From NCBI GenBank assembly GCA_030390025.1, contig JASTWF010000341.1, forward strand, positions 124,001 through 188,000: DNA of 64,000 bases, given 5' to 3'. How positions within the stretch are numbered: the stretch's first letter is position 1; each line of letters starts with the position of its first letter. Source of the stretch: Squalus acanthias. Lineage: Eukaryota. The notes under the pieces were generated by a model that was not told where the DNA came from, did no database searches, and saw nothing but the letters and a program-made list of their open reading frames with translations. A program made the translations under genes and the position numbers. Positions 10,332 to 37,100 of this stretch are shown piece by piece.

Positions 10332-10776
10332 GTCAACCGTGGTTAAGTGGTAGCACTCTCCCCTCTGAGTCAGAAGGTCATGGATTCGAGCCCCAGAGAC
10401 TTGAGTACATAATCCTGGCTGACACTCTCAGTGCAGTACTGAGGGACTGCTGCACTGTTGCAGGTTTCATCTTTGGGATGAGACATTAAACCAAGGTCCC
10501 ATCTGCCCTCTCAAGTGGACATGAAAGATCTCATGGCACTATTCAAAAAAGAGCAGGGGAGTTCTCCCTGGTGCCCTGGGTGAATATTTATCCCTCAACC
10601 ATTATCTCTAAAACTGATTATCTGGTCATTATCTCATTGCTGTTTATGGGACCTTGCTATGCACAAATTGGCTGCCGTGTTTCCTACATTACAACAGTGA
10701 CTACACTTCAAAAGTACTTAATTGGTTGTAAAGCACTTTGGGACATCCTGACATCGTGAAAGGCGTTATATAAATG
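10332..10776 (+). mobile_element. tRNA-derived SINE of the Deu-domain type (SacSINE1/AmnSINE1-like); its 3' tail resumes at ~11719-11745
   Basis: Pol III A-box-like GTGGTTAAGTGG (~10339) and B-box-like GGATTCGAGCC (~10382). The body GATGAGACATTAAACCAAGG...GGCACTATTCAAAAAAGAGCAGGGGAGTTCTCC resembles the Deu core as I recall it. Tail GGCGTTATATAAATG/CAAG. Confidence 0.8.
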
Positions 10777-10960
10777 TCCTCGTACAAGAAACACAGAAAA
10801 CTAGCATGCAGGTACAGCAAGCAATAAAGAAGGCATATGGCATGTTGGCCTTTATTGCAAGGGGGTTGGAGTATAAGAGTAAGGAAGTCTTGCTACAGGA
10901 ATAACAACAGAAAATGCTGGAAAAACTCAGCAGGCCAGGCAGCATCCATGGAGAGAGAAA

Positions 10961-11005
10961 CAGAGTTAACGTTTCAGGTCGAAGACCTTTCGTCAGAACG
11001 TTCTG
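10961..11005 (-). ncRNA. Minimal type-I hammerhead ribozyme-like motif
   Basis: Minus strand: CAGA-AC-GUU CUGACGA A AGGUC-UUC-GACCU GAAA CG UU AAC-UCUG. It has the CUGANGA and GAAA cores, a 5-bp stem II, a palindromic ACGU stem III, and stem I GUU/AAC plus CAGA/UCUG. Confidence 0.6.
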
Positions 11006-11038
11006 ACGAAAGGTCTTCGACCTGAAACTTTAACTCTG
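10994..11038 (+). ncRNA. Mirror hammerhead-like motif with a mutated stem III
   Basis: CTGACGA at 11003-11009, stem AGGTC-TTC-GACCT, GAAA at 11024-11027. It is followed by CTTT instead of CGTT. Confidence 0.45.
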
Positions 11039-12494: not shown

Positions 12495-12556
12495 CAAGCA
12501 CTTGAATTAATATAGCATTCTGCACATGCACAAAGATGTCTTAAGGTGCTTTACAA
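12495..12556 (-). mobile_element. Old fragment of the same SINE/LINE 3' tail, reverse orientation
   Basis: cttgaattaatatagcattctgcac...gatgtcttaaggtgctttaca is a diverged reverse complement of the SINE tail at 10728-10776. Confidence 0.45.
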
Positions 12557-12717
12557 GAAGGAGGCAAGCAATTTTTTTTAAATGAGCTTCTACTAAGAAT
12601 TCTGATCTAACTGTAAGCGTGCATTTCATTTCCAGTTCGGTCCATTTTAATTTTTTTAAATAAATATTTTTGTTTACACTGTTCATGTTAATGGGACAAT
12701 CAGAATAACTACCTCAC

Positions 12718-12781
12718 CAGTGTTACAAAGACCAGCAGTCAAAGAGAGATAAATTGGTATCACTGGATAGTCACTAATCAT
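12718..12781 (-). CDS. Tentative first coding exon (MISDYPVIPIYLSLTAGLCNT-)
   Basis: gcgccATG with an in-frame upstream stop, donor CTG|GTGAGG, and phase 1 matching exon 7146-7262. Confidence 0.35.
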
Positions 12782-12912
12782 GGCGCTTCAGCAATCTTGT
12801 CATTTTAACTGTGTATGTTAATTCCGTCCTTCACAGAGTCAGATTCTGTAGCTTTTCTCATCCAGTCCTCAAAAATGTCATAAAAAACAGAAACAGGAAA
12901 GAAATCTTGGTA

Positions 12913-13063
12913 GGGCAGATTTTCAACATCCCGCCCAGGCAAAAGACTGACGCTGTGAAACAGTAATCCACTATAGAAAACGGTGACTGTTAATGGTTTG
13001 AAAAATCAGGCTGTCCTATAACGTGAGGCCAATCCTCAGCAGCAGTTTTATGCCCAGGCAGCT
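12913..13063. mobile_element. Degenerate palindromic MITE (Harbinger-like terminus) whose right arm runs into the satellite
   Basis: Begins GGGCAGATTTTCAAC. 12932-12976 and 13016-13060 are inverted repeats (26/45 ungapped by hand, many mismatches transitions). The right TIR is absent from the window. Confidence 0.6.
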
Positions 13064-16000
13064 GATCCGCAGCAGCAGTTATACTGTCGATCCGCAGCAT
13101 TAGTTTTACTGTCGATCCGCAGCAGCAGTTATACTGTCGATCCGCAGCATTAGTTTTACTGTCGATCCTCAGCATTAGTTTTACTGTCGATCCTCAGCAT
13201 TAGTTTTACTGTCGATCCTCAGCATTAGTTTTACTGACGATCCACAGCATTAGTTTTACTGTCGATCCGCAGCAGCAGTTATACTGTCGATCCGCAGCAT
13301 TAGTTTTACTGTCGATCCTCAGCATTAGTTTTACTGTCGATACACAGCATTAGTTTTACTGTCGATCCGCAGCAATAGTTTTACTGTCGATCCTCAGGGT
13401 TAGTTTTACTGTCGATCCTCAGCGTTAGTTTTACTGACGATCCTCAGCATTAATTTTACTGTCGATCCGCAGCGTTAGTTTTACTGTCGATCCTCAGCAT
13501 TAGTTTTACTGACGATTCTCAGCGTTAATTTTACTGTCGATCATCAGCATTAATTTTACTGTCGATCCTCAGCATTAATTTTACTGTCGATCCTCAGCAT
13601 TAATTTTACTGTCGATCCTCAGCATTAGTTTTACTGTCGATCCTCAGCATTAATTTTACTCTCGATCCTCAGCATTAGTTTTAATGTCGATCCTCAGCAT
13701 TAGTTTTACTGTCGATCCTCAGCATTAGTTTTACTGTCGATCCTCAGCATTAGTTTTACTGTCGAACCTCAGCGTTAGTTTTACTGTCGATCCTCAGCGT
13801 TAGTTTTACTGTCGATCCTCAGCATTAGTTTTACTGTCGATCCTCAGCATTAGTTTTACTGTCGATCCTCAGCATTAGTTTTACTGTCGATCCTCAGCAT
13901 TAGTTTTACTGTCGATCCTCAGCATTAGTTTTACTGTCGATCCTCAGCATTAGTTTTAATGTCGATCCTCAGCATTAGTTTTACTGTCAATACTCAGCAT
14001 TAGTTTTACTGTCGATCCTCAGCATTAGTTTTACTGTCGATCCTCAGCATTAGTTTTAATGTCGATCCTCAGCATTAGTTTTACTGTCGATCCTCAGCGT
14101 TAGTTTCACTGTCGATCCTCAGCATTAGTTTTACTGTCGATCCTCAGCGTAAGTATTACTGTCGATCCTCAGCATTAGTTTTACTGTCGATCCTCAGCGT
14201 TAGTTTTACTGTCGATCCTCAGCATTAGTTTTACTGTCGATCCTCAGCATTAGTTTTACTGTCGATCCTCAGCGTTAGTTTTACTGTCGATCCTCAGCGT
14301 TAGTTTTACCGACAATTTTCAGCGTTAATTTTACTGTCGATCCTCAGGATTAGTTTTACTGTCGATCCTCAGGATTAGTTTTACTGTCAATCCTCAGCAT
14401 TAATTTTACTGTCGATCCTCAGCATTAATTTTACTGTCGATCCTCAGGATTAGTTTTACTGTCAATCCTCAGGATTAGTTTTACTGTCAATCCACAGCAT
14501 TAATTTTACTGTCGATCCTCAGCATTAGTTTTACTGTCGATCCTCAGGATTAGTTTTACTGAAGTTTCTCAGAATTAGTTTTACCGACGATCCTCAGAAT
14601 TAGTTTTACTGCCGATCCTCATCGTTAGTTTTACTCTCGATCCTCAGCATTAGTTTTACTGTCGATCCGCAGCAGCAGTTATACTGTCGATCCGCAGCAT
14701 TAGTTTTACTGTCGATCCTCAGCATTAGTTTTACTGTCGATCCTCAGCATTAGTTTTACTGTCGATCCTCAGCAATAGTTTTACTGTCAAACCTCAGCAT
14801 CAGTTTTACTGTCGATCCTCAGCATTAGTTTTACTGTCGATCCTCAGCATTAGTTTTACTGTCGATCCACAGCATTAGTTTTACTGTCGATCCGCAGCAA
14901 TAGTTTTACTGTCGATCCTCAGCGTTAGTTTTACTGTCGATCCTCAGCATTAGGTTTACTGACGATCCTCAGCATTAGTTTTACTGTCGATCCTCAGCAT
15001 TAGTTTTGCTGTCGATCAGCAGCATTAGTTTTACTGTCGATCCTCAGCATCAGTATTACTGTCGATCCTCAGGATTCGTTTTACTGTCGATCCGCAGCAT
15101 TCGTTTTACTGTCGATCCTTAGCAATAGTTTTACTGTCGATCCTCAGGATTAGTTTTACAGTCGATCCTCAGCATTAGTTTTACCGACGATATTCAGCAT
15201 TAGTTTTACTGTCGATCCTCAGGATTAGTTTTACTGTCGATCCGCAGCGATAGTTTTACTGTCGATCCTCAGCTTTAGATTTACTGTCGATCCTCAGCAT
15301 TAGTTTTGCTGTCGATCCTCAGCATTAGTTTTACTGTCGATCCGCAGCATCAGTTTTACTGTCGATCCTCAGCATTAGTTTTACTGTCGATCCGCAGCAT
15401 TAATTTTACTGTCGATCCTCAGCATTAGTTTTACTGTCGATCCTCAGCATTAGTTTTACTGTCGATCCTCAGCGTTAGTTTTACCGACAATTTTCAGCGT
15501 TAATTTTACTGTCGATCCTCAGGATTAGTTTTACTGTCGATCCTCAGGATTAGTTTTACTGTCAATCCTCAGCATTAATTTTACTATCGATCCTCAGCAT
15601 TAATTTTACTGTCGATCCTCAGGATTAGTTTTACTGTCAATCCTCAGGATTAGTTTTACTGTCAATCCACAGCATTAATTTTACTGTCGATCCTCAGCAT
15701 TAGTTTTACTGTCGATCCTCAGGATTAGTTTTACTGAAGTTTCTCAGAATTAGTTTTACCGACGATCCTCAGAATTAGTTTTACTGCCGATCCTCATCGT
15801 TAGTTTTACTCTCGATCCTCAGCATTAGTTTTACTGTCGATCCGCAGCAGCAGTTATACTGTCGATCCGCAGCATTAGTTTTACTGTCGATCCTCAGCAT
15901 TAGTTTTACTGTCGATCCTCAGCATTAGTTTTACTGTCGATCCTCAGCATTAGTTTTACTGTCGATCCACAGCATTAGTTTTACTGTCGATCCGCAGCAA

Positions 16001-18308
16001 TAGTTTTACTGTCGATCCTCAGCGTTAGTTTTACTGTCGATCCTCAGCATTAGGTTTACTGTCGATCCGTAGCATTAATTTTACTGTCGATCCTCAGCGT
16101 TAGTTTTACTGACGATCCTCAGCATTAGTTTTACTGTCGATCCTCAGCAATAGTTTTACTGTCAAACCTCAGCATCAGTTTTACTGTCGATCCTCAGCAT
16201 TAGTTTTACTGTCGATCCTCAGCAATACTTTTACTGTCTATCCTCAGGATTAGATTTACAGTCGATCCTCAGCATTAGTTTTACCGACGATATTCAGCAT
16301 TAATTTTACTGTCGATCCTCAGAATTAGTTTTACTGTCGATCCTCAGCGTTAGTTTTACTGTCGATCCTCAGCATTAGATTTACTGTCGATCCTCAGCGT
16401 TAGTTTTACTGTCGATCCTCAGCGTTAGTTTTACTGTCGATCCTCAGCGTTAGGTTTACTGTCGATCCGCAGCATTAGTTTTACTGTCGATCCTCAGCAT
16501 TAGTTTTGCTGTCGATCAGCAGCATTAGTTTTACTGTCGATCCTCAGCATCAGTTTTACTGTCGATCCTCAGGATTCGTTTTACTGTCGATCCGCAGCAT
16601 TAGTTTTACTGTCGATCCTTAGCAATAGTTTTACTGTCGATCCTCAGGATTAGTTTTACAGTCGATCCTCAGCATTAGTTTTACCGACGATATTCAGCAT
16701 TAGTTTTACTGTCGATCCTCAGGATTAGTTTTACTGTCGATCCGCAGCGATAGTTTTACTGTCGATCCTCAGCTTTAGATTTACTGTCGATCCTCAGCAT
16801 TAGTTTTACTGTCGATCCAAAGCGTTAGTTTTACTGTAGATCCGCAGCAATATTTTTACTGTCAATCCGCAGCAATGGTTTTACTGTCGATCCTCAGCAT
16901 TAGTTTTACTGTCGATCCTCAGCATTACTTTTACTGTCGAACCTCAGCATTAGTTTTACTGTCGATCCTCAGCATTGGTTTTACTGTCGATCCTCAGCGT
17001 TAGTTTTACTGTCGATCCTCAGCATAAGTTTAACTGTCGATCCTCAGCGTTAGTTTTACTGTCGATCCTCAGCGTTAGTTTTACTGTCGATCCTCAGCGT
17101 TAGTTTAACTGTCGATCCTTAGCGTTAGTTTTACTGTCGATCCTCAGCGTTAGTTTCACTGTCAATCCTCAGCGTTAGTTTTACTGTCGATCGTCAGCAT
17201 TAGTTTTACTGACGATCCTCAGCATTAGTTTTACTGTCGATCCTCAGCTTTAGTTTTACTGTCGATCCTCAGCGTTAGTTTTACTGTCGATCCTCAGCGT
17301 TAGTTTCACTGTCGATCCTCAGCGTTAGTTTTACTGTCGATCATCAGCATTAGTTTTACTGACGATCCTCAGCATTAGTTTTACAGTCGATCGTCAGCTT
17401 TAGTTTTACTGTCGATCCTCACCATTAGTTTTACTGTCGATCCTCAGCATTAGTTTTACTGTCGATCCGCAGCATTAGTTTTACTGTCAATCCTCAGCAT
17501 TAATTTTACTGTCGATCCTCAGCATTAATTTTACTGTCGATCCTCAGCATTAGTTTTACTGTCGATCCTCAGCATTAATTTTACTGTCGATCCTCAGCAT
17601 TAATTTTACTGTCGATCCTCAGCTTTAGTTTTACTGTCGATCCTCAGCATTAGTTTTACTGTCGATCCTCAGCATTAGTTTTACTGTAGATCCGCAGCAT
17701 TAGTTTTACTGTCAATCCTCAGCATTAATTTTACTGTCGATCCGCAGCATTAATTTTACTGACGATCCTCAGGATTAGTTTTACTGACGATCCTCAGAAT
17801 TAGTTTTACTGTCGATCCTCAGCATTAGTTTTACTGTCGATCCACAGCATTAATTTTACTGTCGATCCTCAGAATTAGTTTTACTGTCGATCCTCAGCGT
17901 TAGTTTTACTGTCGATCCTCAGCATTAGATTTACTGTCGATCCTCAGCGTTAGTTTTACTGTCGATCCTCAGCGTTAGTTTTACTGTCGATCCTCAGCGT
18001 TAGGTTTACTGTCGATCCGTAGCATTAGATTTACTGTCGATCCTCAGCGTTAGTTTTACTGTCGATCCTCAGCATTAGTTTTACTGTCGATCCTCAGCGT
18101 TAGTTTTACTGACGATCCTCAGCATTAGTTTTACTGTCGATCCTCAGCAATAGTTTTACTGTCAAACCTCAGCATCAGTTTTACTGTCGATCCTCAGCAT
18201 TAGTTTTACTGTCGATCCTCAGCAATACTTTTACTGTCTATCCTCAGCATCAGTTTTACTGTCGATCCGCAGCATTAGTTTTACTGTCGATCCACAACAT
18301 TAGTTTTC
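13064..18308 (+). repeat. 25-bp tandem satellite, left block (~210 monomers)
   Basis: Head-to-tail GATCCTCAGCATTAGTTTTACTGTC with substitution variants; the 25-bp register is kept without indels. Confidence 0.98.
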
Positions 18309-19186
18309 GGGGTAAAAATTCACTTGGTTGCGCCTCCCGTTAGCGCCTTAAGAGGGTGCTAATGGGGCGCAAAGCCGCTAACGCCCGGGCGCAGCGATGT
18401 TTGCGCCGCTCGAGAACTTAACTTGAGATTGTGCGGCGGCGCTAAAACTTACCGCTGCGACCACCTGCGCGCGCAGATTGTGACGTCATTCCATGGTGCA
18501 ACGCCCTTGTGGCGCCCCGTAGCGGAAATTGAGTGGCGCCCCCTGCCTTACCGCCTGGCGCTTCCAACGACCAGACGACTGGAACGCTATCAATCGCTGT
18601 GGGGCTGGGGGGGGGCGCTATTTAAAGGGGGCCTCTTCCTGTCTTTTATTGTTGGTGGCATTTTTGAACTACGCATTCTGAGAGAGAGAGGGAGAGACTT
18701 CTGGAGAGATTCAACGTTGTGTGAAGGAGTTTTGGGTACTGTGCAGCACTTTGCAGGTTCATTTTGATTTGCCATTCCTTGTATCGATTTAGCAGAGACT
18801 GTGGGAGCTGCACTCTGAGCTCTTTGCCTGGTACGCTCCATTGTTCTTTCCAGCACATTTGATGTGCAAGTCTCTCCAGGCCGAGATTCAAGGCAGCAAT
18901 GAACAGGATGTGGATGGAAAGCAAGATTAACCATCCCCTTTAAGAACTGGCCCGTGCCATTGTGTGTGTGTTCCATTGCTGACTGACATTACATGAGCTT
19001 CGCCAGCACTCCGAGTTAGCGCCTCACTGCTCGGCCTTTGCGCCTTAAGAGAGGTGTGCAGCGCCTGCTTTAGCGCTCCACTCACCTCCCGGGGCGGTAA
19101 AAGTAAAGTTTCCTGTCAGTGCCGATAATTAGCGCCAGGCGCTAATATTTGCGTCCGGACGATATTTGCACCCCAATTTCTACCCC
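18309..19186. mobile_element. 878-bp non-autonomous PIF/Harbinger-type element inserted in the satellite
   Basis: TIRs GGGGTAAAAATT and rc GGGGTAGAAATT (11/12). It is inserted at the TTA of a monomer (TTC left, TTA right), with repeated TAGCGCC/GGCGCTA subterminal motifs. Confidence 0.9.
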
Positions 19187-22100
19187 TTACTGTCGATCCT
19201 CAGCATTAATTTTACTGTCGATCCTCAGCATTAGTTTTACTGTCGATCCTCAGCATTAATTTTACTGTCGATCCGCAGCGTTAGTTTTACTGTCGATCCT
19301 CAGCTTTAGTTTTACTGTCGATCCGCAGAATTATGTTTTCCAGTCGATCCTCAGGATTAATTTTACTCTCGATCCTCAGAATTAGTTTTACTGTCGATCC
19401 TCAGCATTAATTTTAAAGTCGATCCGCAGGATTAGTTTTACTGTCGATCCTCAGCATTAATTTTAAAGTCGATCCTCAGGATTAGTTTTACTGTCGATCC
19501 TCAGCATTAGTTTTACTGTCGATCCTCAGCATTAGTTTTACTGTCGAACCTCAGCGTTAGTTTTACTGTCGATCCTCAGCATTAGTTTTACTGTCGATCC
19601 TTAGCGTTAGTTTTACTGTCGATCCTCAGCGTAAGTATTACTGTCGATCCTCAGCATTAGTTTTGCTGTCGATCCTCAGCATTAGTTTTACTGTCGATCC
19701 TCAGCATTAGTTTTACTGTCGATCCTCAGCATTCGTTTTACTGTCGAACCTCAGCGTTAGTTTTACTGTCGATCCTCAGCATTAGTTTTACTGTCGATCC
19801 TCAGCATTAGTTTTACTGTCGATCTGCAGCATTAGTTTTACTGTCGATCCTCAGGATTAGTTTTACTGTCAATCCTCAGCATTAGTTTTACTGTCGATCT
19901 GCAGCATCAGTTTTACTGTCGATCCTCAGCATTAGTTTTACTGTCGATCCTCAGCGTTAGTTTTACTGTCGGTCCTCAGCGTTAGTTTTACTGTCGATCC
20001 TCAGCGTTAGTTTTACTGTCGATCCTCAGCATTAGTTTTACTGTCGATCCGCAGCATTAGTTTTACTGTCGATCCTCAGCATTAGTTTTACTGTCGACCC
20101 TCAGCGTTAGTTTTACTGTCGATCATCAGCGTTAGTTTTACTGTCGATCCTCAGCGTTAGTTTTACTGTCGATCCGCAGCATTAGTTTTACTGTCGATTC
20201 TCAGCGTAAGTTTTACTGTCGATCCGCAGTATCAGTTTTACCTACAATTTTCAGCGTTAATTTTACTGTTGATCCTCAGCGTTAGTTTTACTGTCGATCC
20301 TCAGAATTAGCTTTACTGTCGCTCCTCAGCATTAATTTTACTGTCGATCCTCAGGATTAGTTTTACTGTCAATCCTCAGCATTAATTTTACTGTCGATCC
20401 TCAGCATTCATTTTACTGTCGATCCTCAGCATTAATTTTACTGTCGATCCTCAGGATTAGCTTTACTGTCAATCCTCAGCATTAATTTTACTGTCAATCC
20501 TCAGCATTAATTTTACTGTCGATCCTCAGCGTTAGTTTTACTGTCGATCCTCAGCGTTAATTTTACTGTCGATCCTCAGCGTTAGTTTTACTGTCGATCC
20601 TCAGCATCAGTTTTACTGTCGATCCTCAGCATTAGTTTTACTGTTGATCCTCAGCATTAGTTTTACTGTCGATCCTCAGCATTAGTTTTACTGTCGATCC
20701 TCAGAATTAGTTTTACTGTCGATCCTCAGCATTAGTTTTACTGTCGATCCGGAGCATTAATTTTACTGTCGATCCTCAGAATTAGTTTTACTGTCGATCC
20801 TCAGCGTTAGTTTTACTGTCGATCCTCAGCATTAGATTTACTGTCGATCCTCAGCGTTAGTTTTACTGTCGATCCTCAGCATTAGATTTACTGTCGATCC
20901 TCAGCATTAGTTTTACTGTCGATCCTCAGCAATACTTTTACTGTCTATCCTCAGCATCAGTTTTACTGTCGATCCTCAGCGTTAGTTTCACTGTCGATCC
21001 TCAGCGTTAGTTTTACTGTCGATCATCAGCATTAGTTTTACTGACGATCCTCAGCATTAGTTTTACAGTCGATCGTCAGCTTTAGTTTTACTGTCGATCC
21101 TCACCATTAGTTTTACTGTCGATCCTCAGCATTAGTTTACTGTCAATCCTCAGCATTAATTTTACTGTCGATCCTCAGCATTAATTTTACTGTCGATCCT
21201 CAGCATTAGTTTTACTGTCGATCCTCAGCATTAATTTTACTGTCGATCCTCAGCATTAATTTTACTGTCGATCCTCAGCATCAGTTTTACTGTCGATCCT
21301 CAGGATTAGTTTTACTGTCGATCCGCAGCATTAGTTTTACTGTCGATCCTTAGCAATAGTTTTACTGTCGATCCGCAGCATTAGTTTTACTGTCGATCCT
21401 CAGCATCAGTTTTACTGTCGCTCCTCAGGATTAGTTTTACTGTCGATCCTCAGCTTTAGATTTACTGTCGATCCTCAGCATTAGTTTTACTGTCGATCCT
21501 CAGCGTAAGTTTTACTGTCGATCCTCAGCATAAGTTTAACTGTCGATCCTCAGCGTTAGTTTTACTGTCGATCCTCAGCGTTAGTTTTACTGTCGATCCT
21601 CAGCGTAAGTATTACTGTCGATCCTCAGCATTAGTTTTGCTGTCGATCCTCAGCATTAGTTTTACTGTCGATCCTCAGCATTAGTTTTACTGTCGATCCT
21701 CAGCATTCGTTTTACTGTCGAACCTCAGCGTTAGTTTTACTGTCGATCCTCAGCATTAGTTTTACTGTCGATCCTCAGCATTAGTTTTACTGTCGATCTG
21801 CAGCATTAGTTTTACTGTCGATCCTCAGGATTAGTTTTACTGTCAATCCTCAGCATTAATTTTACTGTCGATCTGCAGCATCAGTTTTACTGTCGATCCT
21901 CAGCATTAGTTTTACTGTCGATCCTCAGCGTTAGTTTTACTGTCAATCCTCAGCATTAATTTTACTGTCAATCCTCAGCATTAATTTTACTGTCGATCCT
22001 CAGCGTTAGTTTTACTGTCGATCCTCAGCATTAGTTTTACTCTCGATCCTCAGCGTTAATTTTACTGTCGATCCTCAGCGTTAGTTTTACTGTCGATCCT

Positions 22101-25100
22101 CAGCATCAGTTTTACTGTCGATCCTCAGCATTAGTTTTACTGTCGATCCTCAGCATTAGTTTTACTGTCGATCCTCAGCATTAGTTTTACTGTCGATCCT
22201 CAGAATTAGTTTTACTGTCGATCCTCAGCATTAGTTTTACTGTCGATCCGGAGCATTAATTTTACTGTCGATCCTCAGAATTAGTTTTACTGTCGATCCT
22301 CAGCATTAGATTTACTGTCAATCCTCAGCGTTAGTTTTACTGTCGATCCTCAGCATTAGATTTACTGTCGATCCTCAGCATTAGTTTTACTGTCGATCCT
22401 CAGCAATACTTTTACTGTCTATCCTCAGCATCAGTTTTACTGTCGATCCTCAGCATTAGTTTCACTGTCGATCCGCAGCATTAGTTTTACTGTCGATCCT
22501 CAGCATAAGTTTAACTGTCGATCCTCAGCGTTAGTTTTACTGTCGATCCTCAGCGTTAGTTTTACTGTCGATCCTCAGCGTTGGTTTAAACTGTCGATCC
22601 TTAGCGTTAGTTTTACTGTCGATCCTCAGCGTTAGTTTCACTGTCAATCTCAGCGTTAGTTTTACTGTCGATCGTCAGCATTAGTTTTACAGACGATCCT
22701 CAGCATTAGTTTTACTGTCGATCCTCAGCTTTAGTTTTACTGTCGATCCTCAGCGTTAGTTAAACTGTCGATCCTCAGCGTAGTTAAACTGTCGATCTCA
22801 GCGTTAGTTTCACTGTCGATCCTCAGCATTAGTTTACTGACGATCCTCAGCATTAGTTTTACTGACGATCCTCAGCATTAGTTTTACTGACGATCCTCAG
22901 CATTAGTTTTACTGACGATCCTCAGCGTTAGTTTTCTGTCGATCCTCAGCATTAGTTTTACTGACGATCCTCAGCATTAGTTTTACTGTCGATCCTCAGC
23001 TTTAGTTTTACTGTCGATCCGTTTAGTTTTACTGTCGATCCGTAGCATTAATTTTAAAGTCGATGCTCAGGATTAGTTTTACTGTCGAACCTCAGCATTA
23101 GTTTTACTGTCGATCCTCAGCATTGGTTTTACTGTCGATCCTCAGCGTTAGTTTTACTGTCGATCCTCAGCATAAGTTTAACTGTCGATCCTCAGCGTTA
23201 GTTTTACTGTCGATCCTCAGCGTTAGTTTTACTGTCGATCCTCAGCGTTAGTTTAACTGTCGATCCTTAGCGTTAGTTTTACTGTCGATCCTCAGCGTTA
23301 GTTTCACTGTCAATCCTCAGCGTTAGTTTTACTGTCGATCGTCAGCATTAGTTTTACTGACGATCCTCAGCATTAGTTTTACTGTCGATCCTCAGCTTTA
23401 GTTTTACTGTCGATCCTCAGCGTTAGTTTTACTGTCGATCCTCAGCGTTAGTTTCACTGTCGATCCTCAGCGTTAGTTTTACTGTCGATCATCAGCATTA
23501 GTTTTACTGACGATCCTCAGCATTAGTTTTACAGTCGATCGTCAGCTTTAGTTTTACTGTCGATCCTCACCATTAGTTTTACTGTCGATCCTCAGCATTA
23601 GTTTTACTGTCAATCCTCAGCATTAATTTTACTGTCGATCCTCAGCATTAATTTTACTGTCGATCCTCAGCATTAGTTTTACTGTCGATCCTCAGCATTA
23701 ATTTTACTGTCGATCCTCAGCATTAATTTTACTGTCGATCCTCAGCATCAGTTTTACTGTCGATCCTCAGGATTAGTTTTACTGTCGATCCGCAGCATTA
23801 GTTTTACTGTCGATCCTTAGCAATAGTTTTACTGTCGATCCGCAGCATTAGTTTTACTGTCGATCCTCAGCATCAGTTTTACTGTCGCTCCTCAGGATTA
23901 GTTTTACTGTCGATCCTCAGCTTTAGATTTACTGTCGATCCTCAGCATTAGTTTTACTGTCGATCCTCAGCGTAAGTTTTACTGTCGATCCTCAGCATAA
24001 GTTTAACTGTCGATCCTCAGCGTTAGTTTTACTGTCGATCCTCAGCGTTAGTTTTACTGTCGATCCTCAGCGTTAGTTTAACTGTCGATCCTCAGCGTTA
24101 GTTTAACTGTCGATCCTCAGCGTAAGTATTACTGTCGATCCTCAGCATTAGTTTTGCTGTCGATCCTCAGCATTAGTTTTACTGTCGATCCTCAGCATTA
24201 GTTTTACTGTCGATCCTCAGCATTCGTTTTACTGTCGAACCTCAGCGTTAGTTTTACTGTCGATCCTCAGCATTAGTTTTACTGTCGATCCTCAGCATTA
24301 GTTTTACTGTCGATCTGCAGCATTAGTTTTACTGTCGATCCTCAGGATTAGTTTTACTGTCAATCCTCAGCATTAGTTTTACTGTCGATCTGCAGCATCA
24401 GTTTTACTGTCGATCCTCAGCATTAGTTTTACTGTCGATCCTCAGCGTTAGTTTTACTGTCGGTCCTCAGCGTTAGTTTTACTGTCGATCCTCAGCGTTA
24501 GTTTTACTGTCGATCCTCAGCATTAGTTTTACTGTCGATCCGCAGCATTAGTTTTACTGTCGATCCTCAGCATTAGTTTTACTGTCGACCCTCAGCGTTA
24601 GTTTTACTGTCGATCCTCAGAATTAGCTTTACTGTCGATCCTCAGGATTAGTTTTACTGTCAATCCTCAGCATTAATTTTACTGTCGATCCTCAGCATTA
24701 ATTTTACTGTCAATCCTCAGCATTAATTTTACTGTCGATCCTCAGCATTAGTTTTACTGTCGATCCTCAGCGTTAATTTTACTGTCGATCCTCAGCGTTA
24801 GTTTTACTGTCGATCCTCAGCATTAGTTTTACTGTCGATCCGCAGCATTAATTTTACTGTCGATCCTCAGAATTAGTTTTACTGTCGATCCTCAGCATTA
24901 GTTTTACTGTCGATCCTCAGCATTAGTTTTACTGTCGATCCTCAGCATTAGTTTTACTGTCGATCCTCAGCATTAGTTTTACTGTCGATCCTCAGCATTA
25001 GTTTTACTGTCGATCCTCAGAATTAGTTTTACTGACGATCCTCAGCATTAGTTTTACTGTCGATCCGCAGCATTAATTTTACTGACGATCCTCAGGATTA

Positions 25101-28100
25101 GTTTTACTGACGATCCTCAGAATTAGTTTTACTGTCGATCCTCAGCATTAGTTTTACTGTCGATCCGGAGCATTAATTTTACTGTCGATCCTCAGAATTA
25201 GTTTTACTGTCGATCCTCAGCGTTAGTTTTACTGTCGATCCTCAGCATTAGATTTACTGTCGATCCTCAGCGTTAGTTTTACTGTCGATCCTCAGCATTA
25301 GATTTACTGTCGATCCTCAGCATTAGTTTTACTGTCGATCCTCAGCAATACTTTTACTGTCTATCCTCAGTATCAGTTTTACTGTCGATCCTCAGCATTA
25401 GTTTCACTGTCGATCCGCAGCATTAGTTTTACTGTCGATCCTCAGCATAAGTTTAACTGTCGATCCTCAGCGTTAGTTTTACTGTCGATCCTCAGCGTTA
25501 GTTTTACTGTCGATCCTCAGCGTTGGTTTAACTGTCGATCCTTAGCGTTAGTTTTACTGTCGATCCTCAGCGTTAGTTTCTCTGTCAATCCTCAGCGTTA
25601 GTTTTACTGTCGATCGTCAGCATTAGTTTTACTGACGATCCTCAGCATTAGTTTTACTGTCGATCCTCAGCTTTAGTTTTACTGTCGATCCTCAGCGTTA
25701 GTTAAACTGTCGATCCTCAGCGTTAGTTAAACTGTCGATCCTCAGCGTTAGTTTCACTGTCGATCCTCAGCGTTACTTTTACTGTCGATCCTCAGCATTA
25801 GTTTTACTGACGATCCTCAGCATTAGTTTTACTGTCGATCCTCAGCTTTAGTTTCACTGTCGATCCTCACCATTAGTTTTACTGTCGATCCTCAGCATTA
25901 GTTTTACTGTCGATCCGCAGCATTAGTTTTACTGTCAATCCTCAGCATTAATTTTACTGTCGATCCTCAGCATTAATTTTACTGTCGATCCTCAGCATTA
26001 GTTTTACTGTCGATCCTCAGCATTAATTTTACTGTCGATCCTCAGCATTAATTTTACTGTCGATCCTCAGCTTTAGTTTTACTGTCGATCCTCAGCATTA
26101 GTTTTACTGTCGATCCGCAGCATTAGTTTTACTGTCGATCCTCAGCATTAGTTTTACTGTCAATCCTCAGTATTAATTTTACTGTCGATCCGCAGCATTA
26201 ATTTTACTGTCGATCCTCAGCTTTAGTTTTACTGTCGATCCTCAGCATTAGTTTTACTGTCGATCCTCAGCATTAGTTTTACTGTCGATCCTCAGCTTTA
26301 GTTTTACTGTCGATCCTCAGCATTAGTTTTACTGTCGATCCGCAGCATTAGTTTTACTGTCAATCCTCAGTATTAATTTTACTGTCGATCCGCAGCATTA
26401 ATTTTACTGACGATCCTCAGCATTAGTTTTACTGTCGATCCGCAGCATTAGTTTTACTGTCAATCCTCAGCATTAATTTTACTGTCGATCCTCAGCATTA
26501 ATTTTACTGTCGATCCTCAGCATTAGTTTTACTGTCGATCCTCAGCATTAATTTTACTGTCGATCCTCAGCATTAATTTTACTGTCGATCCTCAGCTTTA
26601 GTTTTACTGTCGATCCTCAGCATTAATTTTACTGTCGATCCTCAGCATTAATTTTAAAGTCGATGCTCAGGATTAGTTTTACTGTCGATCCTCAGCATTA
26701 ATTTTACTGTCGATCCTCAGCATTAGTTTTACTGTCGATCCTCAGCATTCGTTTTACTGTCGATCCTCAGCGTTAGTTTTACTGTCGATCCTCAGCATTA
26801 GTTTTACTGTCGATCCTCAGCATTAGTTTTACTGTCGATCCGTAGCATTAGTTTTACTGTCGACCCTCAGAATTAGTTTTACTGTCGATCCTCAGCATTA
26901 GTTTTACTGTCGATCCTCAGCATTAGTTTTACTGTCGATCCTCAGCATTAGTTTTACTGTCGATCCTCAGCATTAGTTTTACTGTCGATCCTCAGCATTA
27001 GTTTTACTGTCGATCCTCAGAATTAGTTTTACTGACGATCCTCAGCATTAGTTTTACTGTCGATCCGCAGCATTAATTTTACTGACGATCCTCAGGATTA
27101 GTTTTACTGTCGATCCTCAGCGTTAGTTTTACTGTCGATCCTCAGCATTAGATTTACTGTCGATCCTCAGCGATTGTTTTACTGTCGATCCTCAGCGTTA
27201 GTTTTACTGTCGATCCTCAGCGTCAGGTTTACTGTCGATCCGTAGCATTAATTTTACTGTCGATCCTCAGCGTTAGTTTTACTGACGATCCTCAGCATCA
27301 GTTTTACTGTCGATCCTCAGCATTAGTTTTACTGTCGATCCTAAGCAATACTTTTACTGTCGATCCTCAGCATCAGTTTTACTGTCGATCCTCAGCATTA
27401 GTTTCACTGTCGATCCGCAGCATTAGTTTTACTGTCGATCCTCAGCATTAGTTTTGCTGTCGATCCTCAGCATTAGTTTTACTGTCGATCCTCAGCATCA
27501 GTTTTACTGTCGATCCTCAGGATTAGTTTTACTGTCGATCCGCAGCATTAGTTTTACTGTCGATCCTTAGCAATAGTTTTACTGTCGATCCGCAGCATTA
27601 GTTTTACTGTCGATCCTCAGCATCAGTTTTACTGTCGCTCCTCAGGATTAGTTTTACTGTCGATCCTCAGCTTTAGATTTACTGTCGATCCTCAGCATTA
27701 GTTTTACTGTCGATCCTCAGCGTAAGTTTTACTGTCGATCCTCAGCATAAGTTTAACTGTCGATCCTCAGCGTTAGTTTTACTGTCGATCCTCAGCGTTA
27801 GTTTTACTGTCGATCCTCAGCGTTAGTTTAACTGCCGATCCTCAGCGTTAGTTTTACTGTCGATCCTCAGCGTTAGTTTTACTGTCGATCGTCAGCGTTA
27901 GTTTTACTGACGATCCTCAGCATTAGTTTTACTGTCGATCCTCAGCTTTAGTTTTACTGTCGATCCTCAGCATAAGTTTAACTGTCGATCCTCAGCGTTA
28001 GTTTTACTGTCGATCCTCAGCGTTAGTTTTACTGTCGATCCTCAGCGTTGGTTTAACTGTCGATCCTTAGCGTTAGTTTTACTGTCGATCCTCAGCGTTA

Positions 28101-31100
28101 GTTTCACTGTCAATCCTCAGCGTTAGTTTTACTGTCGATCGTCAGCATTAGTTTTACTGACGATCCTCAGCATTAGTTTTACTGTCGATCCTCAGCGTTA
28201 GTTAAACTGTCGATCCTCAGCGCTAGTTACACTGTCGATCCTCAGCGTTAGTTTCACTGTCGATCCTCAGCGTTAGTTTTACTGTCGATCCTCAGCATTA
28301 GTTTTACTGTCGATCCTCAGAATTAGTTTTACTGACGATCCTCAGCATTAGTTTTACTGTCGATCCGCAGCATTAATTTTACTGACGATCCTCAGGATTA
28401 GTTTTACTGTCGATCCTCAGCGTTAGTTTTACTGTCGATCCTCAGCATTAGATTTACTGTCGATCCTGAGCGATTGTTTTACTGTCGATCCTCAGCGTTA
28501 GTTTTACTGTCGATCCTCAGCGTCAGGTTTACCTGTCGATCCGTAGCATTAAGTTTACTGTCGATCCTCAGCGTTAGTTTTACTGACGATCCTCAGCATT
28601 CAGTTTTACTGTCGATCCTCAGCATTAGTTTTACTGTCGATCCGCAGCATTAATTTTACTGACGATCTCAGGATTAGTTTTACTGTCGATCCTCAGCGTT
28701 AGTTTTACTGTCGATCCTCAGCATTAGATTTACTGTCGATCCTCAGCGATTGTTTTACTGTCGATCCTCAGCGTTAGTTTTACTGTCGATCCTCAGCATT
28801 AGTTTTACTGTCGATCCGCAGCATTAGTTTTACTGTCGATCCTCAGCATTAGTTTTACTGTCGATCCTCAGCATTAGTTTTACTGTCGATCCTCAGCGTT
28901 AGTTTTACTGTCGGTCCTCAGCGTTAGTTTTACTGTCGATCCTCAGCGTTAGTTTTACTGTCGATCCTCAGCATTAGTTTTACTGTCGATCCGCAGCATT
29001 AGTTTTACTGTCGTTCCTCAGCGTTAGTTTTACTGTCGATCCTCAGCATTAGTTTTACTGTCGATCCTCAGCATTAGTTTTACTGTCGATCCTCAGCATT
29101 AGTTTTACTGTCGATCCTCAGCATTAGTTTTACTGTCGATCCTCAGCGTTAGTTTTACTGTCGATCCTCAGCATTAGTTTTACTGTCGATCCTCAGCATT
29201 AGTTTTACTGTCGATCCTCAGCATTAGTTTTACTGTCGATCCTCAGCATTAGTTTTACTGTCGATCCTCAGCATTAGTTTACTGTCGATCCTCAGCATTA
29301 GTTTTACTGTCGATCCTCAGCATTAGTTTTACTGTCGATCCTCAGCATTAGTTTTACTGTCGATCCTCAGCATTAGTTTTACTGTCGATCCTCAGCATTA
29401 GTTTTACTGTCGATCCTCAGCGTTAGTTTTACTGTCGATCCTCAGCATTAGTTTTACTGTCGATCCTCAGCATTAGTTTTACTGTCGATCCTCAGCATTA
29501 GTTTTACTGTCGATCCTCAGCATTAGTTTTACTGTCGATCCTCAGCGTTAGTTTTACTGTCGATCCTCAGCATTAGTTTTACTGTCGATCCTCAGCATTA
29601 ATTTTACTGTCGATCCTCAGCATTAGTTTTACTGTCGATCCTCAGCATTAGTTTTACTGTCGATCCTCAGCATTAGTTTTACTGTCGATCCTCAGCATTA
29701 GTTTTACTGTCGATCCTCAGCATTAGTTTTACTGTCGATCCTCAGCATTAGTTTTACTGTCGATCCTCAGCATTAGTTTTACTGTCGATCCTCAGCATTA
29801 GTTTTACTGTCGATCCTCAGCATTATTTACTGTCGATCCTCAGCATTAGTTTTACTGTCGATCCTCAGCATTAGTTTTACTGTCGATCCTCAGCATTAGT
29901 TTTACTGTCGATCCTCAGCATTAGTTTTACTGTCGATCCTCAGATTAGTTTTACTGTCGATCCTCAGCATTAGTTTTACTGTCGATCCTCAGCATTATTT
30001 TACTGTCGATCCTCAGCATTAGTTTTACTGTCGATCCTCAGCATTAGTTTTACTGTCGATCCTCAGCATTAGTTTTACTGTCGATCCTCAGCATTAGTTT
30101 TACTGTCGATCCTCAGCATTAGTTTTACTGTCGATCCTCAGCATTAGTTTTACTGTCGATCCTCAGCATTAGTTTTACTGTCGATCCTCAGCATTAGTTT
30201 TACTGTCGATCCTCAGCATTAATTTTACTGTCGATCCTCAGCATTAATTTTACTGTCGATCCTCAGCATTAGTTTTACTGTCGATCCTCAGCATTAGTTT
30301 TACTGTCGATCCTCAGCATTAGTTTTACTGTCGATCCTCAGCATTAGTTTTACTGTCGATCCTCAGCATTAGTTTTACTGTCGATCCTCAGCATTAGTTT
30401 TACTGTCGATCCTCAGCATTAGTTTTACTGTCGATCCTCAGCATTAGTTTTACTGTCGATCCTCAGCATTAGTTTTACTGTCGATCCTCAGCATTAGTTT
30501 TACTGTCGATCCTCAGCATTAGTTTTACTGTCGATCCTCAGCATTAGTTTTACTGTCGATCCTCAGCATTAGTTTTACTGTCGATCCTCAGCATTAGTTT
30601 TACTTTCGAATCCTCAGCATTAGTTTTACTGACGATCCTCAGCATTAGTTTTACTGTCGATCCTCAGCATTAGTTTTACTGACGATCCTCAGGATTAGTT
30701 TAGCTGTCGATCCTCAGCGTTAGTTTTACTGTCGATCCTCAGCATTAGATTTACTGTCGATCTCAGCATTAGTTTTACTGTCGATCCTCAGCATTAGTTT
30801 TACTGTCGATCCTCAGCATTCAGGTTTACTGTCGATCCGCAGCATTAATTTTACTGTCGATCCTCAGCGTTAGTTTTACTGACGATCCTCAGCGATAGTT
30901 TTACTGTCGATCCTCAGCATTAGATTTACTGTCGATCCTAAGCGATAGCTTTTACTGTCGATCCTCAGCGATCAGTTTTACTGTCGATCCTCAGCAGTAG
31001 GTTTCACTGTCGATCCGCTAGCATAGTTTTACTGTCGATCCTCAGCATTAGTTTTACTGTCGATCCTCAGCATTAGTTTTACTGTCGATCCTCAGCATTA

Positions 31101-34100
31101 GTTTTACTGTCGATCCTCAGCATTAGTTTTACTGTCGATCCTCAGCATTAGTTTTACTGTCGATCCTCAGCATTAGTTTTACTGTCGATCCTCAGCATTA
31201 GTTTTACTGTCGATCCTCAGCATTAGTTTTACTGTCGATCCTCAGCATTAGTTTTACTGTCGATCCTCAGCATTAGTTTACTGTCGATCCTCAGCATTAG
31301 TTTTACTGTCGATCCTCAGCATTAGTTTTACTGTCGATCCTCAGCATTAGTTTTACTGTCGATCCTCAGCGATTAGTTTTACTGTCGATCCTCAGCATTA
31401 GTTTTACTGTCGATCCTCAGCATTAGTTTTACTGTCGATCCTCAGCATTAGTTTTACTGTCGATCCTCAGCGTTAGTTTTACTGTCGATCCTCAGCATTA
31501 GTTTTACTGTCGATCCTCAGCATTAGTTTTACTGTCGATCCTCAGCATTAGTTTTACTGTCGATCCTCAGCATTAGTTTTACTGTCGATCCTCAGCATTA
31601 GTTTTACTGTCGATCCTCAGCGTTAGTTTTACTGTCGATCCTCAGCATTAGTTTTACTGTCGATCCTCAGCATTAGTTTTACTGTCGATCCTCAGCATTA
31701 GTTTTACTGTCGATCCTCAGCGTTAGTTTTACTGTCGATCCTCAGCATTAGTTTTACTGTCGATCCTCAGCATTAGTTTTACTGTCGATCCTCAGCATTA
31801 GTTTTACTGTCGATCCTCAGCATTAGTTTTACTGTCGATCCTCAGCGTTAGTTTTACTGTCGATCCTCAGCGTTAGTTTTACTGTCGATCCTCAGCATTA
31901 GTTTTACTGTCGATCCTCAGCATTAGTTTTACTGTCGATCCTCAGCATTAGTTTTACTGTCGATCCTCAGCATTAGTTTTACTGTCGATCCTCAGCATTA
32001 GTTTTACTGTCGATCCTCAGCATTAGTTTTACTGTCGATCCTCAGCGTTAGTTTTACTGTCGATCCTCAGCATTAGATTTACTGTCGATCCTGAGCGATT
32101 GTTTTTACTGTCGATCCTCAGCGTTAGTTTTACTGTCGATCCTCAGCGTCAGGTTTACTGTCGATCCGTAGCATTAATTTTACTGACGATCCTCAGCGTA
32201 GTTTTACAGACGATCCTCAGCATCAGTTTTACTGTCGATCCTCAGCATTAGTTTTACTGTCGATCCGCAGCATTAATTTTACTGACGATCCTCAGGATTA
32301 GTTTTACTGTCGATCCTCAGCGTTAGTTTTACTGTCGATCCTCAGCATTAGATTTACTGTCGATCCTCAGCGATTGTTTTACTGTCGATCCTCAGCGTTA
32401 GTTTACTGTCGATCCTCAGCGTCAGGTTTACTGTCGATCCGTAGCATTAATTTTACTGTCGATCCTCAGCGTTAGTTTTACTGACGATCCTCAGCATCAG
32501 TTTTACTGTCGATCCTCAGCATTAGTTTTACTGTCGATCCTAAGCAATACTTTTACTGTCGATCCTCAGCATCAGTTTTACTGTCGATCCTCAGCATTAG
32601 TTTCACTGTCGATCCGCAGCATTAGTTTTACTGTCGATCCTCAGCATTAGTTTTACTGTCGATCCTCAGCATTAGTTTTACTGTCGATCCTCAGCATCAC
32701 TTTTACTGTCGATCCTCAGGATTAGTTTTACTGTCGATCCGCAGCATTAGTTTTACTGTCGATCCTTAGCAATAGTTTTACTGTCGATCCGCAGCATTAG
32801 TTTTACTGTCGATCCTCAGCATCAGTTTTACTGTCGATCGTCAGCGTTAGTTTTACTGACGATCCTCAGCATTAGTTTTACTGTCGATCCTCAGCTTTAG
32901 TTTTACTGTCGATCCTCAGCTTTAGTTTTACTGTCGATCCTCAGCAGTAGTTTTACTGTCGATCCGCAGCATTAGTTTTACTGTCGATCCTCAGCATTAG
33001 TTTTACTGTCAATCCTCAGCATTAATTTTACTGTCAATCCTCAGCATTAATTTTACTGTCGATCCTCAGCATTAGTTTTACTGTCGATCCTCAGCATTAA
33101 TTTTACTGTCGATCCTCAGCATTAGTTTTACTGTCGATCCTCAGCGTTAGTTTTACTGTCGATCCTCAGCATTAATTTTACTGTCGATCCTCAGCATTAA
33201 TTTTACTGTCGATCCTCAGCATTAGTTTTACTGTCGATCCTCAGCATTCGTTTTACTGTCGATCCTCAGCGTTAGTTTTACTGTCGATCCTCAGCATTAG
33301 TTTTACTGTCGATCCGCAGAATTAGTTTTACTGTCGATCCTCAGCATTAGTTTTACTGTCGATCCTCAGCATTAGTTTTACTGTCGATCCGCAACATTAG
33401 TTTTACTGTCGATTCTCAGCATTAGTTTTACTGTCGATCCTCAGCATTAGTTTTACTGTCGAACCTCAGCATTAGTTTTACTGTCGATCCTCAGCATTAG
33501 TTTTACTGTCGATCCTCAGCATTAGTTTTACTGTCGATCCGCAACATTAGTTTTACTGTCGATTCTCAGCATTAGTTTTACTGTCAATCCTCAGCATTAA
33601 TTTTACTGTCGATCCTCAGCATTAATTTTACTGTCGATCCTCAGCATTAGTTTTACTGTCGATCCTCAGCATTAATTTTACTGTCGATCCGCAGCGTTAG
33701 TTTTACTGTCGATCCTCAGCTTTAGTTTTACTGTCGGTCCGCAGAATTATGTTTTCCTGTCGATCCTCAGGATTAGTTTTACTGTCGATCCTCAGCTTTA
33801 GTTTTACTGTCGATCCTCAGCATTAGATTTACTGTCGATCCTCAGCGTTAGTTTTACTGTCGATCCTCAGCATTAATTTTACTGTCGATCCTCAGCATTA
33901 ATTTTACTGTCGATCCTCAGCGTTAGTTTTACTGTCGATCCTCAGCATTAATTTTACAGTCGATCCTCAGCATTAATTTTACTGTCGATCCTCAGCGTTA
34001 GTTTTACTGTCGATCCGCAGCGTTAGTTTTACTGTCGATCCTCAGCATTAGTTTTACTGTCGATCCGCAGCATTAGTTTTACTGTCGATCCTCAGCATTA

Positions 34101-37100
34101 GTTTTACTGTCGATCCTCAGCATTAGTTTACTGTCGATCCGCAACAGTTAGTTTTACTGTCGATCCTCAGCATTAGTTTTACTGTCGAACCTCAGCGTTA
34201 GTTTTACTGTCGATCCTCAGCATTAGTTTTACTGTCGATCCTCAGCATTAGTTTTACTGTCGATCCTCAGCATTAGTTTTACTGTCGATCCGCAACATTA
34301 GTTTTACTGTCGATCCTCAGCATTAATTTTACTGTCGATCCTCAGCATTAATTTTACTGTCGATCCTCAGCATTAGTTTTACTGTCGATCCTCAGCATTA
34401 ATTTACTGTCGATCCGCAGCGTTAGTTTTACTGTCGATCCTCAGCTTTAGTTTACTGTCGTCCGCAGAATTATGTTTTCCTGTCGATCCTCAGATTAGTT
34501 TTACTGTCGATCCTCAGCTTTAGTTTTACTGTCGATCCTCAGCATTAGATTTACTGTCGATCCTCAGCGTAGTTTTACTGTCGATCCTCAGCATTAGATT
34601 TACTGTCGATCCTCAGCATTAGTTTACTGTCGATCCTCAGCAATACTTTTACTGTCTATCCTCAGCATCAGTTTTACTGTCGATCCTCAGCATTAGTTTC
34701 ACTGTCGATCCGCAGCATTAGTTTTACTGTCGATCCTCAGCATAAGTTTAACTGTCGATCCTCAGCGTTAGTTTACTGTCGATCCTCAGCGTTAGTTTAC
34801 TGTCGATCCTCAGCGTTGGTTTAACTGTCGATCCTTAGCGTTAGTTTACTGTCGATCCTCAGCGTTAGTTTCACTGTCAATCCTCAGCGTTAGTTTTACT
34901 GTCGATCGTCAAGCATTAGTTTTACTGACGATCCTCAGCATTAGTTTTACTGTCGATCCTCAGCTTTAGTTTTACTGTCGATCCTCAGCGTTAGTTAAAC
35001 TGTCGATCCTCAGCGCTAGTTAAACTGTCGATCCTCAGCGTTAGTTTCACTGTCGATCCCTCAGCGTTAGTTTTACTGTCGATCCTCAGCTTAGTTTACT
35101 GACGATCCTCAGCATTAGTTTTACTGTCGATCCTCAGCTTTAGTTTTACTGTCGATCCGTAGCATTAATTTTAAAGTCGATGCTCAGGATTAGTTTTACT
35201 GTCGATCCTCAGCATTAATTTTACTGTCGATCCTCAGCATTAGTTTTACTGTCGATCCTCAGCATTCGTTTTACTGTCGATCCTCAGCGTTAGTTTTACT
35301 GTCGATCCTCAGCATTAGTTTTACTGTCGATCCTCAGCATTAGTTTTACTGTCGATCCGTAGCATTAGTTTTACTGTCGATCCTCAGAATTAGTTTTACT
35401 GTCGATCCTCAGCATTAGTTTTACTGTCGATCCTCAGCATTAGTTTTACTGTCGATCCTCAGCATTAGTTTTACTGTCGATCCTCAGCATTAGTTTTACT
35501 GTCGATCCTCAGAATTAGTTTTACTGACGATCCTCAGCATTAGTTTTACTGTCGATCCGCAGCATTAATTTTACTGACGATCCTCAGGATTAGTTTTACT
35601 GTCGATCCTCAGCGTTAGTTTTACTGTCGATCCTCAGCATTAGAATTTTCTGTCGATCCTCAGCGATTGTTTTACTGTCGATCCTCAGCGTTAGTTTTAC
35701 TGTCGATCCTCAGCGTCAGGTTTACTGTCGATCCGTAGCATTAATTTTACTGTCGATCCTCAGCGTTAGTTTACTGACGATCCTCAGCATCAGTTTTACT
35801 GTCGATCCTCAGCAATAGTTTTACTGTCGATCCTATGCAATACTTTTACTGTCGATCCTCAGCATCAGTTTTACTGTCGATCCTCAGCATTAGTTTCACT
35901 GTCGATCCGCAGCATTAGTTTTACTGTCGATCCTCAGCATTAGTTTTACTGTCGATCCTCAGCATTAGTTTTACTGTCGATCCTCAGCATCAATTTTACT
36001 GTCGATCCTCAGGATTAGTTTTACTGTCGATCCGCAGCATTAGTTTTACTGTCGATCCTTAGCAATAGTTTTACTGTCGATCGCAGCATTAGTTTTACTG
36101 TCGATCCTCAGCATCAGTTTTACTGTCGCTCCTCAGGATTAGTTTTACTGTCGATCCTCAGCTTTAGATTTACTGTCGATCCTCAGCATTAGTTTTACTG
36201 TCGATCCTCAGCGTAAGTTTTACTGTCGATCCTCAGCATAAGTTTAACTGTTGATCCTCAGCATTAGTTTTACTGTCGATCCTCAGCGTTAGTTTTACTG
36301 TCGATCCTCAGCGTTAGTTTTACTGTCGATCGTCAGCGTTAGTTTTACTGACGATCCTCAGCATTAGTTTTACTGTCGATCCTCAGCTTTAGTTTTACTG
36401 TCGATCCTCAGCTTTAGTTTTACTGTCGATCCTCAGCAGTAGTTTTACTGTCGATCCGCAGCATTAGTTTTACTGTCGATCCTCAGCATTAGTTTTACTG
36501 TCAATCCTCAGCATTAATTTTACTGTCAATCCTCAGCATTAATTTTACTGTCGATCCTCAGCATTAGTTTTACTGTCGATCCTCAGCATTAATTTTACTG
36601 TCGATCCTCAGCATTAATTTTACTGTCGATCCTCAGCGTTAGTTTTACTGTCTATCCTCAGCGTTAGTTTTACTGTCGATCCTCAGCATTAATTTTACAG
36701 TCGATCCTCAGCATTAATTTTACTGTCGATCCTCAGCATTAGTTTTACTGTAGATCCTCAGCATTCGTTTTACTGTCGATCCTCAGCGTTAGTTTTACTG
36801 TCGATCCGCAGCGTTAGTTTTACTGTCGATCCTCAGCATTAGTTTTACTGTCGATCCTCAGCATTAGTTTTACTGTCGATCCGCAACATTAGTTTTACTG
36901 TCGATTCTCAGCATTAGTTTTACTGTCGATCCTCAGCATTAGTTTTACTGTCGAACCTCAGCGTTAGTTTTACTGTCGATCCTCAGCATTAGTTTTACTG
37001 TCGATCCTCAGCATTAGCTTTACTGTCGATCCTCAGCATTAGTTTTACTGTCGATCCGCAACATTAGTTTTACTGTCGATTCTCAGCATTAGTTTTACTG

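Follow-up and report, generated by a model that had tools for sequence, protein, structure and literature searches.

A 25-bp shark satellite array with a very probable origin in a family of short palindromic MITEs

We analysed a 64,000-nt stretch of shark DNA (the window), in which a 25-bp satellite array abuts a MITE with a monomer-like segment in its arm, and this observation, made in an earlier note on the same DNA, is confirmed. The array very probably originated from this MITE family, and it was probably born in place, at the truncated right arm of this particular copy, through a 33-bp slip, an 8-bp contraction and unequal exchange. The features are as follows.

12912..13062, no strand assigned: degraded copy of a palindromic MITE, retaining about 151 of the 170 bp inferred for it and lacking the right terminus; evidence, dispersed copies
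12912..12976, plus strand: left terminus and left arm of the MITE; the reverse complement resembles the monomer (13/20)
13016..13062, plus strand: right arm of the MITE; matched by contigs from other places with 6–9 differences in 45–46 nt
13031..13063, plus strand: unit 0, the 33-bp first repeat step; best shift 33, 8-nt alignment gap
13064..64000, plus strand: 25-bp tandem array; TRF and wrap-around parse, 2004 complete units, mean 1.08 differences
13064..13313, plus strand: edge units 1–10, rich in arm-like or family-like alleles; G12C13 in units 1, 3 and 9, G6 in 6 of 10
18309..19186, no strand assigned: 878-bp inserted element, Harbinger-like; 12-bp inverted ends (11/12), flanks TTC and TTA

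Results

Extent and composition of the array

The array is preceded by 13 kb of mixed sequence (window start to 13063), begins at 13064 and is still open at the window end (64000); TRF assigned it a period of 25 and 2039 copies. A wrap-around parse yielded 2004 complete units and a single 878-bp insertion, with 683 of the 2004 units identical to the consensus and a mean distance from it of 1.08 differences. Being at least 51 kb long and composed of similar monomers arranged head to tail (2004 units), the array has the structure of a satellite, with irregular block duplications and no single higher-order period. The inserted element at 18309–19186 has GGGG..CCCC ends, a 3-bp duplication (TTC/TTA) and the left flank AGTT, and the array resumes in register behind it with a 3-bp overlap. 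Indel-bearing units climb to 11–24% at window positions 43000–58000 and 28000–33000, and exact-consensus units are also more frequent in part of these stretches, where assembly quality is possibly lower. A gain in homogeneity with distance from the edge (Spearman −0.22) was rejected as evidence because indels climb there too, maybe reflecting assembly quality. Most likely the array evolves neutrally, and we claim no function for it. An Rfam scan of window positions 1–20000 gave no matches, and neither did scans for the monomer and for a MITE-end motif in a metagenome collection from which the host may be absent.

A dispersed palindromic MITE beside the array

As described in the earlier note, the array adjoins a degenerate inverted-repeat element with arms at 12932–12976 and 13016–13060, and dispersed copies back the palindrome. 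Considered alone, the palindrome is weak: complementarity extends to 26 of the 45 pairs, a score that 49 of 2000 shuffles also attain, and the 13-kb flank has 28 axes with 25 or more pairs. The fold z-score of the element is −0.84, i.e. there is no excess folding relative to shuffles, and a mechanism involving a present-day hairpin is not supported, since the single-strand fold is no better than that of shuffles. We nevertheless accept the inverted repeat because dispersed copies match both arms and finish in a mirrored terminus.

These copies come from public runs queried with positions 11760–13063 (8 runs, three organisms), four of which were aligned on 12364–13113 at 80% likeness, namely X1 and X2 (organism A), X6 (organism B) and X7 (organism C); the comparison rests on 40 of 60 difference rows, 24 of 140 loose ends and 32 of 372 pieces. 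The arms are repeated in all four, with arm bins at 2.5–14 times single-copy depth, and the MITE centre lies at single-copy depth throughout at the 80% likeness threshold. In X1, depth over the arms reached 80 and 143–147 as against 12 for single-copy sequence, and in organism A the left arm at 12914–12938 stood at 6–7 times single copy. Among the pieces listed, unique contigs of 0.5–3 kb match 13017–13062 alone, with 6–9 differences. The alignment of dispersed copies starts at 12913 and runs beyond 13062 into AAGTTGAAAA..CCCC; we place the start of the MITE at 12912, as four terminal G/C letters in other copies suggest. Among those listed, loose ends before 12913 run into different flanks, and loose ends behind 13062 mirror the left end, reading AAGTTGAAAACTTTCCCC in X1 (2 contigs) and AAGTTGAAAATCAACCCC in X6 and X7 (4 contigs each); among the rows listed, 3 of the four runs thus show ends of this latter kind. 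The other copies possess terminal inverted repeats, the mirror of the left end (GTTGAAAATC) being found 10/10 in X6 and X7. The right terminus, which the earlier note had reported missing, is absent from the entire 64-kb window and is supplied by the loose ends of other copies. The element is also of MITE size, with 151 nt present and about 170 nt inferred, leaving no room for a transposase. The contigs of the four runs thus show 12913–13062 to be a member of a dispersed family of short palindromic elements.

Among other copies, the consensus of the left flank ends in ACAC-NNN-G, based on 4 contigs in X1 and 6 in X2, two runs of a single organism; agreement is low (0.57 and 0.49, respectively), and the left flank of the present copy does not match it. 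PIF/Harbinger elements have a 3-bp target site duplication and an extended target preference, with AAACACCWGGTCTTT as the target of Harbinger3_DR, which the ACAC-NNN-G consensus resembles (PMC3016246 and PMC2836001, excerpts), and further Harbinger features are found in excerpts of PMC9179366 and PMC2836001. The MITE is likely a non-autonomous element of Harbinger type.

Besides, the flank contains other repeats. Positions 9126–9212 hold half of a related palindromic MITE, whose reverse complement equals the junction GGCAGCTGAT exactly; 8151–8912 is a further element, whose inverted ends span 30 bp (83%) and whose interior contains palindromes; and a near-perfect 200-bp palindrome at 10900–11099 (95%, no spacer) breaks a LINE-like 3' end, which we take to be CR1. 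A separate short dispersed repeat at 12764–12838 stands at 6–12 times single-copy depth in four runs, and loose ends at 12824 in organisms B and C fall inside it. Exon-like open stretches with splice-like ends occur on the minus strand at 7147–7262 and 520–601. The minus-strand candidate at about 7147–7262 found no convincing homologue (3 hits, 32–41% identity, several stretches), and therefore we do not claim an intronic position for the array.

The seed lies within the palindrome

The match of the right arm (13031–13050) to the monomer noted previously is real: it amounts to 17 of 20 letters, compared with 14/20 for the best other match in the 13-kb flank in any rotation on either strand, and none of 258 flank windows of 50 nt surpasses 14 matches. 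When reverse-complemented, the left arm shares 13 of 20 positions with the monomer and aligns in register with the right arm. For the half-element at 9126–9212, 19 of 2000 shuffles were equally good against the left half of the MITE, and 6 of 2000 against the right arm when it was reversed. A monomer-like segment in both arms argues that the seed belongs to the palindrome and was not captured from the array. Dispersed copies hold the segment once, without an array, and then run on into the missing right terminus. The earlier note had named a lack of dispersed copies, or a family devoid of the monomer-like segment, as speaking against its proposal; in the four runs, copies are dispersed and carry the segment. 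The direction of descent, as read from these alignments, is from MITE to satellite.

The loose ends behind 12949, which continue the left arm in other copies, and the local left arm indicate G6, G11 and C13 as family letters, and G11, G6 and C13 rank 1, 3 and 5 among 75 minor-allele substitutions in the array; G11 restores a CpG in the monomer. G6, G11 and C13 are not positively linked, the odds ratio being 0.30 for G6–G11 and 0.33 for G11–C13 (negative linkage), and this counts against a simple reading. A likeness of the left arm to the monomer tail in 'TTACTGT' was discarded since organisms B and C differ at 12960–12962. Separately, A9 occurs in 14 units across 33386–57168, 13 of them with G6, i.e. 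as a family-like haplotype, and a G6-A9-G11 unit is also present in organism B.

The junction and the first repeat step

At the junction, the best shift is 33 (20 of 28 matches), followed by 58. Unit 0 consists of 20 monomer-like nt (17/20) and a further 13 nt from the MITE arm, in place of which later units hold 5 nt, so that its alignment to later units requires an 8-nt gap. Decayed versions of GGGC(N)GC can be recognised both in GTGAGGC, the 7 nt that precede the leading C of the seed, and in AGGCAGC, the last 7 nt up to 13062. These short similar GG..GC motifs flanking the seed may have mediated a slipped 33-bp duplication, having been more alike before CpG decay; the microhomology is thus reconstructed, not observed. 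Duplication between short flanking repeats is a route attributed to Haber and Louis in an excerpt of PMC6947457. A contraction by 8 bp, from 33 to 25 bp, would have followed, whereupon repeated unequal exchange would have expanded the 25-bp array, with the missing right terminus displaced to its far end or lost. Arm and edge units would have gone on exchanging sequence afterwards, which would account for the arm sharing T6 with the consensus and G12C13 with unit 1.

Of the 5 letters of the monomer tail (CTGTC), just 2 agree with this copy, whether the comparison is with upstream sequence (AGGCC) or with the letters after an 8-nt deletion (CAGCT); by eye, the tail is closer to the mixed pattern that the family shows ahead of the seed. 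Either the founding monomer changed before amplification, or another copy served as the template.

Edge units resemble the arm without forming a linear series

The edge of the array is distinctive and shares sequence with the arm. The motif GCAGCAG, which the earlier note had pointed out in the first unit at 13064, is indeed present in unit 1 and in 5 of 2004 units overall, all within the first 112. G12C13 occurs solely in units 1, 3, 9, 65 and 112, where 65 and 112 represent one block duplication, and the confinement of its 2–3 independent lineages to the first 112 of 2004 units has a chance probability of 0.003–0.0002. G6 is found in 6 of the first 10 units, as compared with at most 4 in every later 10-unit window. 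The idea that founder, intermediate and consensus monomers are all preserved did not hold up as a clean series: unit 1 and the consensus are equally distant from the arm (3 of 20 differences each), and 63 of 2004 units differ from it at just 2 positions and are closer than unit 1. Moreover, the arm has T6 like the consensus, unlike units 1–4, and at monomer position 12 the consensus (T12) has the letter of the left arm and differs from the right arm. Because of this latter agreement, GCAGCAG may be a later local variant common to arm and edge and not the founder state. An arm–edge mosaic produced by later exchange would fit these alleles better than a linear founder series.

The junction is shared by three organisms

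A single gap-free piece spans the MITE–array junction in X2, X6 and X7, the respective contigs being record 9 of X2 for organism A (10 differences, reaching to 13111), record 17 for organism B (62 differences) and record 25 for organism C (63 differences). Flanks in organisms B and C differ from the window by about 8%. The 8 gap letters are fully explained by two listed indels, which leaves the 33-then-25 structure ungapped in B and C; in X6, 38 of the 62 differences are listed, and the 24 at most left elsewhere are too few for unrelated sequence at 13063–13113. The junction is thereby shown to be common to organisms A, B and C, as judged for B and C from gap and difference totals. Since an array stands at the orthologous junctions, it is old at this site and predates a split of about 8% non-coding divergence. 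The earlier note had looked to related species for an intact MITE without an array at this locus; none was seen among the three organisms, all of which already carry the array there.

In B and C, loose ends carry the consensus monomer of the window unchanged, though zero changes in 25 nt at 8% divergence have a chance of about 0.12 and are not significant alone. Dating by the pedigree rate of the epaulette shark (7e-10 per generation, PMC10587355, excerpt; about 6e7 generations) was set aside, and the age is uncalibrated. At window positions 12364–13018, both organism A samples share at least 7 differences from the window (about 1%). The source of the window may be a close relative of A and not A itself.

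Abundance of the repeat

Summed unit-2 depth relative to single copy came to about 3400 in X1 (55% read), 950–2240 in X2, 760 in X6 and 250 in X7, sums that are not copy numbers and in which contigs of pure consensus are possibly underrepresented. A k-mer simulation of the 2004 units in the window gave 200–13,600 times single copy, depending on the simplification, a range that encloses the sums from all four runs. If each sum reflects one consensus 31-mer, totals of 20–270 kb result; the depth agrees with anything from tens of kb up to a few hundred, and repeat abundance roughly fits a single locus. In record 4 of X1 (2417 nt, single-copy depth), monomers follow about 2.35 kb of non-array sequence absent from the window. 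This record may represent a later insertion in the array, like that at 18309, or else a second locus or free array without a MITE.

Discussion

The proposal that an arm segment was duplicated and expanded about 2000-fold in place holds in part: the MITE origin is very probable, and birth in place is the most economical reading; what has to be amended is the first step, which is 33 bp long and no direct 25-bp copy. Birth at this very copy is less sure than the family origin; the CTGTC misfit and the unexplained junction in X1 record 4 speak against it.

One objection would be that 13031–13050 is just a decayed edge monomer that happens to adjoin a MITE. Degenerate units are usual at array edges, and the palindrome is weak by itself, yet the same 46 nt recur in scattered single-copy contigs, flanked on either side by family sequence, so this reading is largely refuted and we regard it as the least credible of all. 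A more serious contender, if an unlikely one, is that the satellite stems from another copy of the same family, arrived by ectopic recombination or circle reinsertion, and had its edge converted by the local arm. This would be in line with the poor fit of the CTGTC tail to the local copy (2/5), with the family-like A9 haplotype deep in the array and also in organism B (14 units, 13 with G6), and with the second unique-to-array junction in X1. However, a homologous crossover would join within the seed, whereas arm and array actually meet 13 nt past it, in a 33-bp register; abundance is in keeping with a single locus, and the X1 junction could be another insertion in the array like that at 18309. 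Finally, the relationship might be inverted, with an older satellite as the ancestor from which the MITE family captured its monomer, as proposed for miDNA4 of Xenopus (PMC12628747, excerpt). We consider this highly improbable here, as the seed has its mirror image in the left arm, the related half-element at 9126 can be aligned over it (6 of 2000 shuffles equally good), and dispersed copies lie 13–20% from the arm while units average 4% from the consensus. Birth in place at the truncated right arm remains our preferred reading.

The Xstir satellite was reportedly derived from the Xmix MITE by Hikosaka and Kawahara in 2004, and miDNA4 of Xenopus tropicalis is said to go back to Scalvenzi and Pollet in 2014. 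As the earlier note stated, TE-derived satellites are known in general. Xstir, miDNA4 and Tetris are examples; excerpts of reviews list Xstir, miDNA4, D1100 and HindIII as MITE-derived (PMC12628747, PMC9659126, PMC6947457), and corals have entire MITEs arranged in tandem (PMC2872659, excerpt). MITE-derived satellite origin is hence a known process, of which the shark array is an additional instance. For Xstir, excerpts of PMC12628747 and PMC9659126 describe both lone MITEs and MITE–array composites, as here, and in either case the monomer comes from part of a MITE in a vertebrate host. The mechanism given there involves two neighbouring elements and loop excision, whereas one copy and a 33-bp slip suffice for the shark array; the parent of Xstir is of the piggyBac/TTAA type (PMC2872659, excerpt), as opposed to a Harbinger-like parent and apparently about one locus in the shark. 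The Tc1/mariner MITE satellite miDNA4 likewise grew at MITE sequence with short direct repeats invoked (PMC12628747, PMC9659126, excerpts). However, its array sits within intact mobile elements and maybe represents a captured repeat, while the shark seed lies in a palindromic arm with one terminus gone; rather than being foreign to the inverted arms, as in miDNA4, it is mirrored in both, and array-carrying mobile copies were not seen among the pieces listed. In Tetris of Drosophila virilis, the unit TIR-220 likewise comes from the inverted repeats of a class II element (PMC4079207, PMC9659126, excerpts), though from a foldback element and with a unit far longer than 25 bp, the shark seed being single-copy per arm. 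Comparable, too, are Alu, B1 and MaLR minisatellites, with a short unit, a first duplication between 5–10-bp flanking repeats, and then slippage, conversion or unequal crossing-over (PMC6947457, excerpt); the shark array differs in its length of at least 51 kb and its parent, a DNA-transposon MITE.

The excerpts of two shark genome papers (PMC11406177, PMC10620051) mention satellites, though not the present one, and the monomer motif was found neither in open literature text nor in two supplementary files of PMC11406177. A keyword search of the literature, with subscription papers, repeat databases and other supplements outside its scope, found no MITE-derived satellite of sharks.

In summary, the present work adds a clean new example of a known process and reveals no new mechanism or function. 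Transposon origin of satellites has mostly been inferred from similarity between monomer and TE consensus (tables in PMC9659126 and PMC6947457, excerpts). In the present case the parent copy survives, as do the first duplication step and, in other species, orthologous junctions, so that slipped duplication and the pace of homogenisation become directly testable. Tentatively, and with somewhat less than even confidence, we suggest a single-locus satellite whose birth scar (arm, 33-bp step, 25-bp units) is frozen at its edge and common to shark-type lineages about 8% apart, with the consensus monomer unchanged and ancestral MITE alleles segregating, as one case of a genome-wide growth of 10–60-kb arrays from TE fragments. 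If true, this frozen scar would amount to a natural experiment, with a date attached, on how a satellite is born and how very slowly it homogenises.
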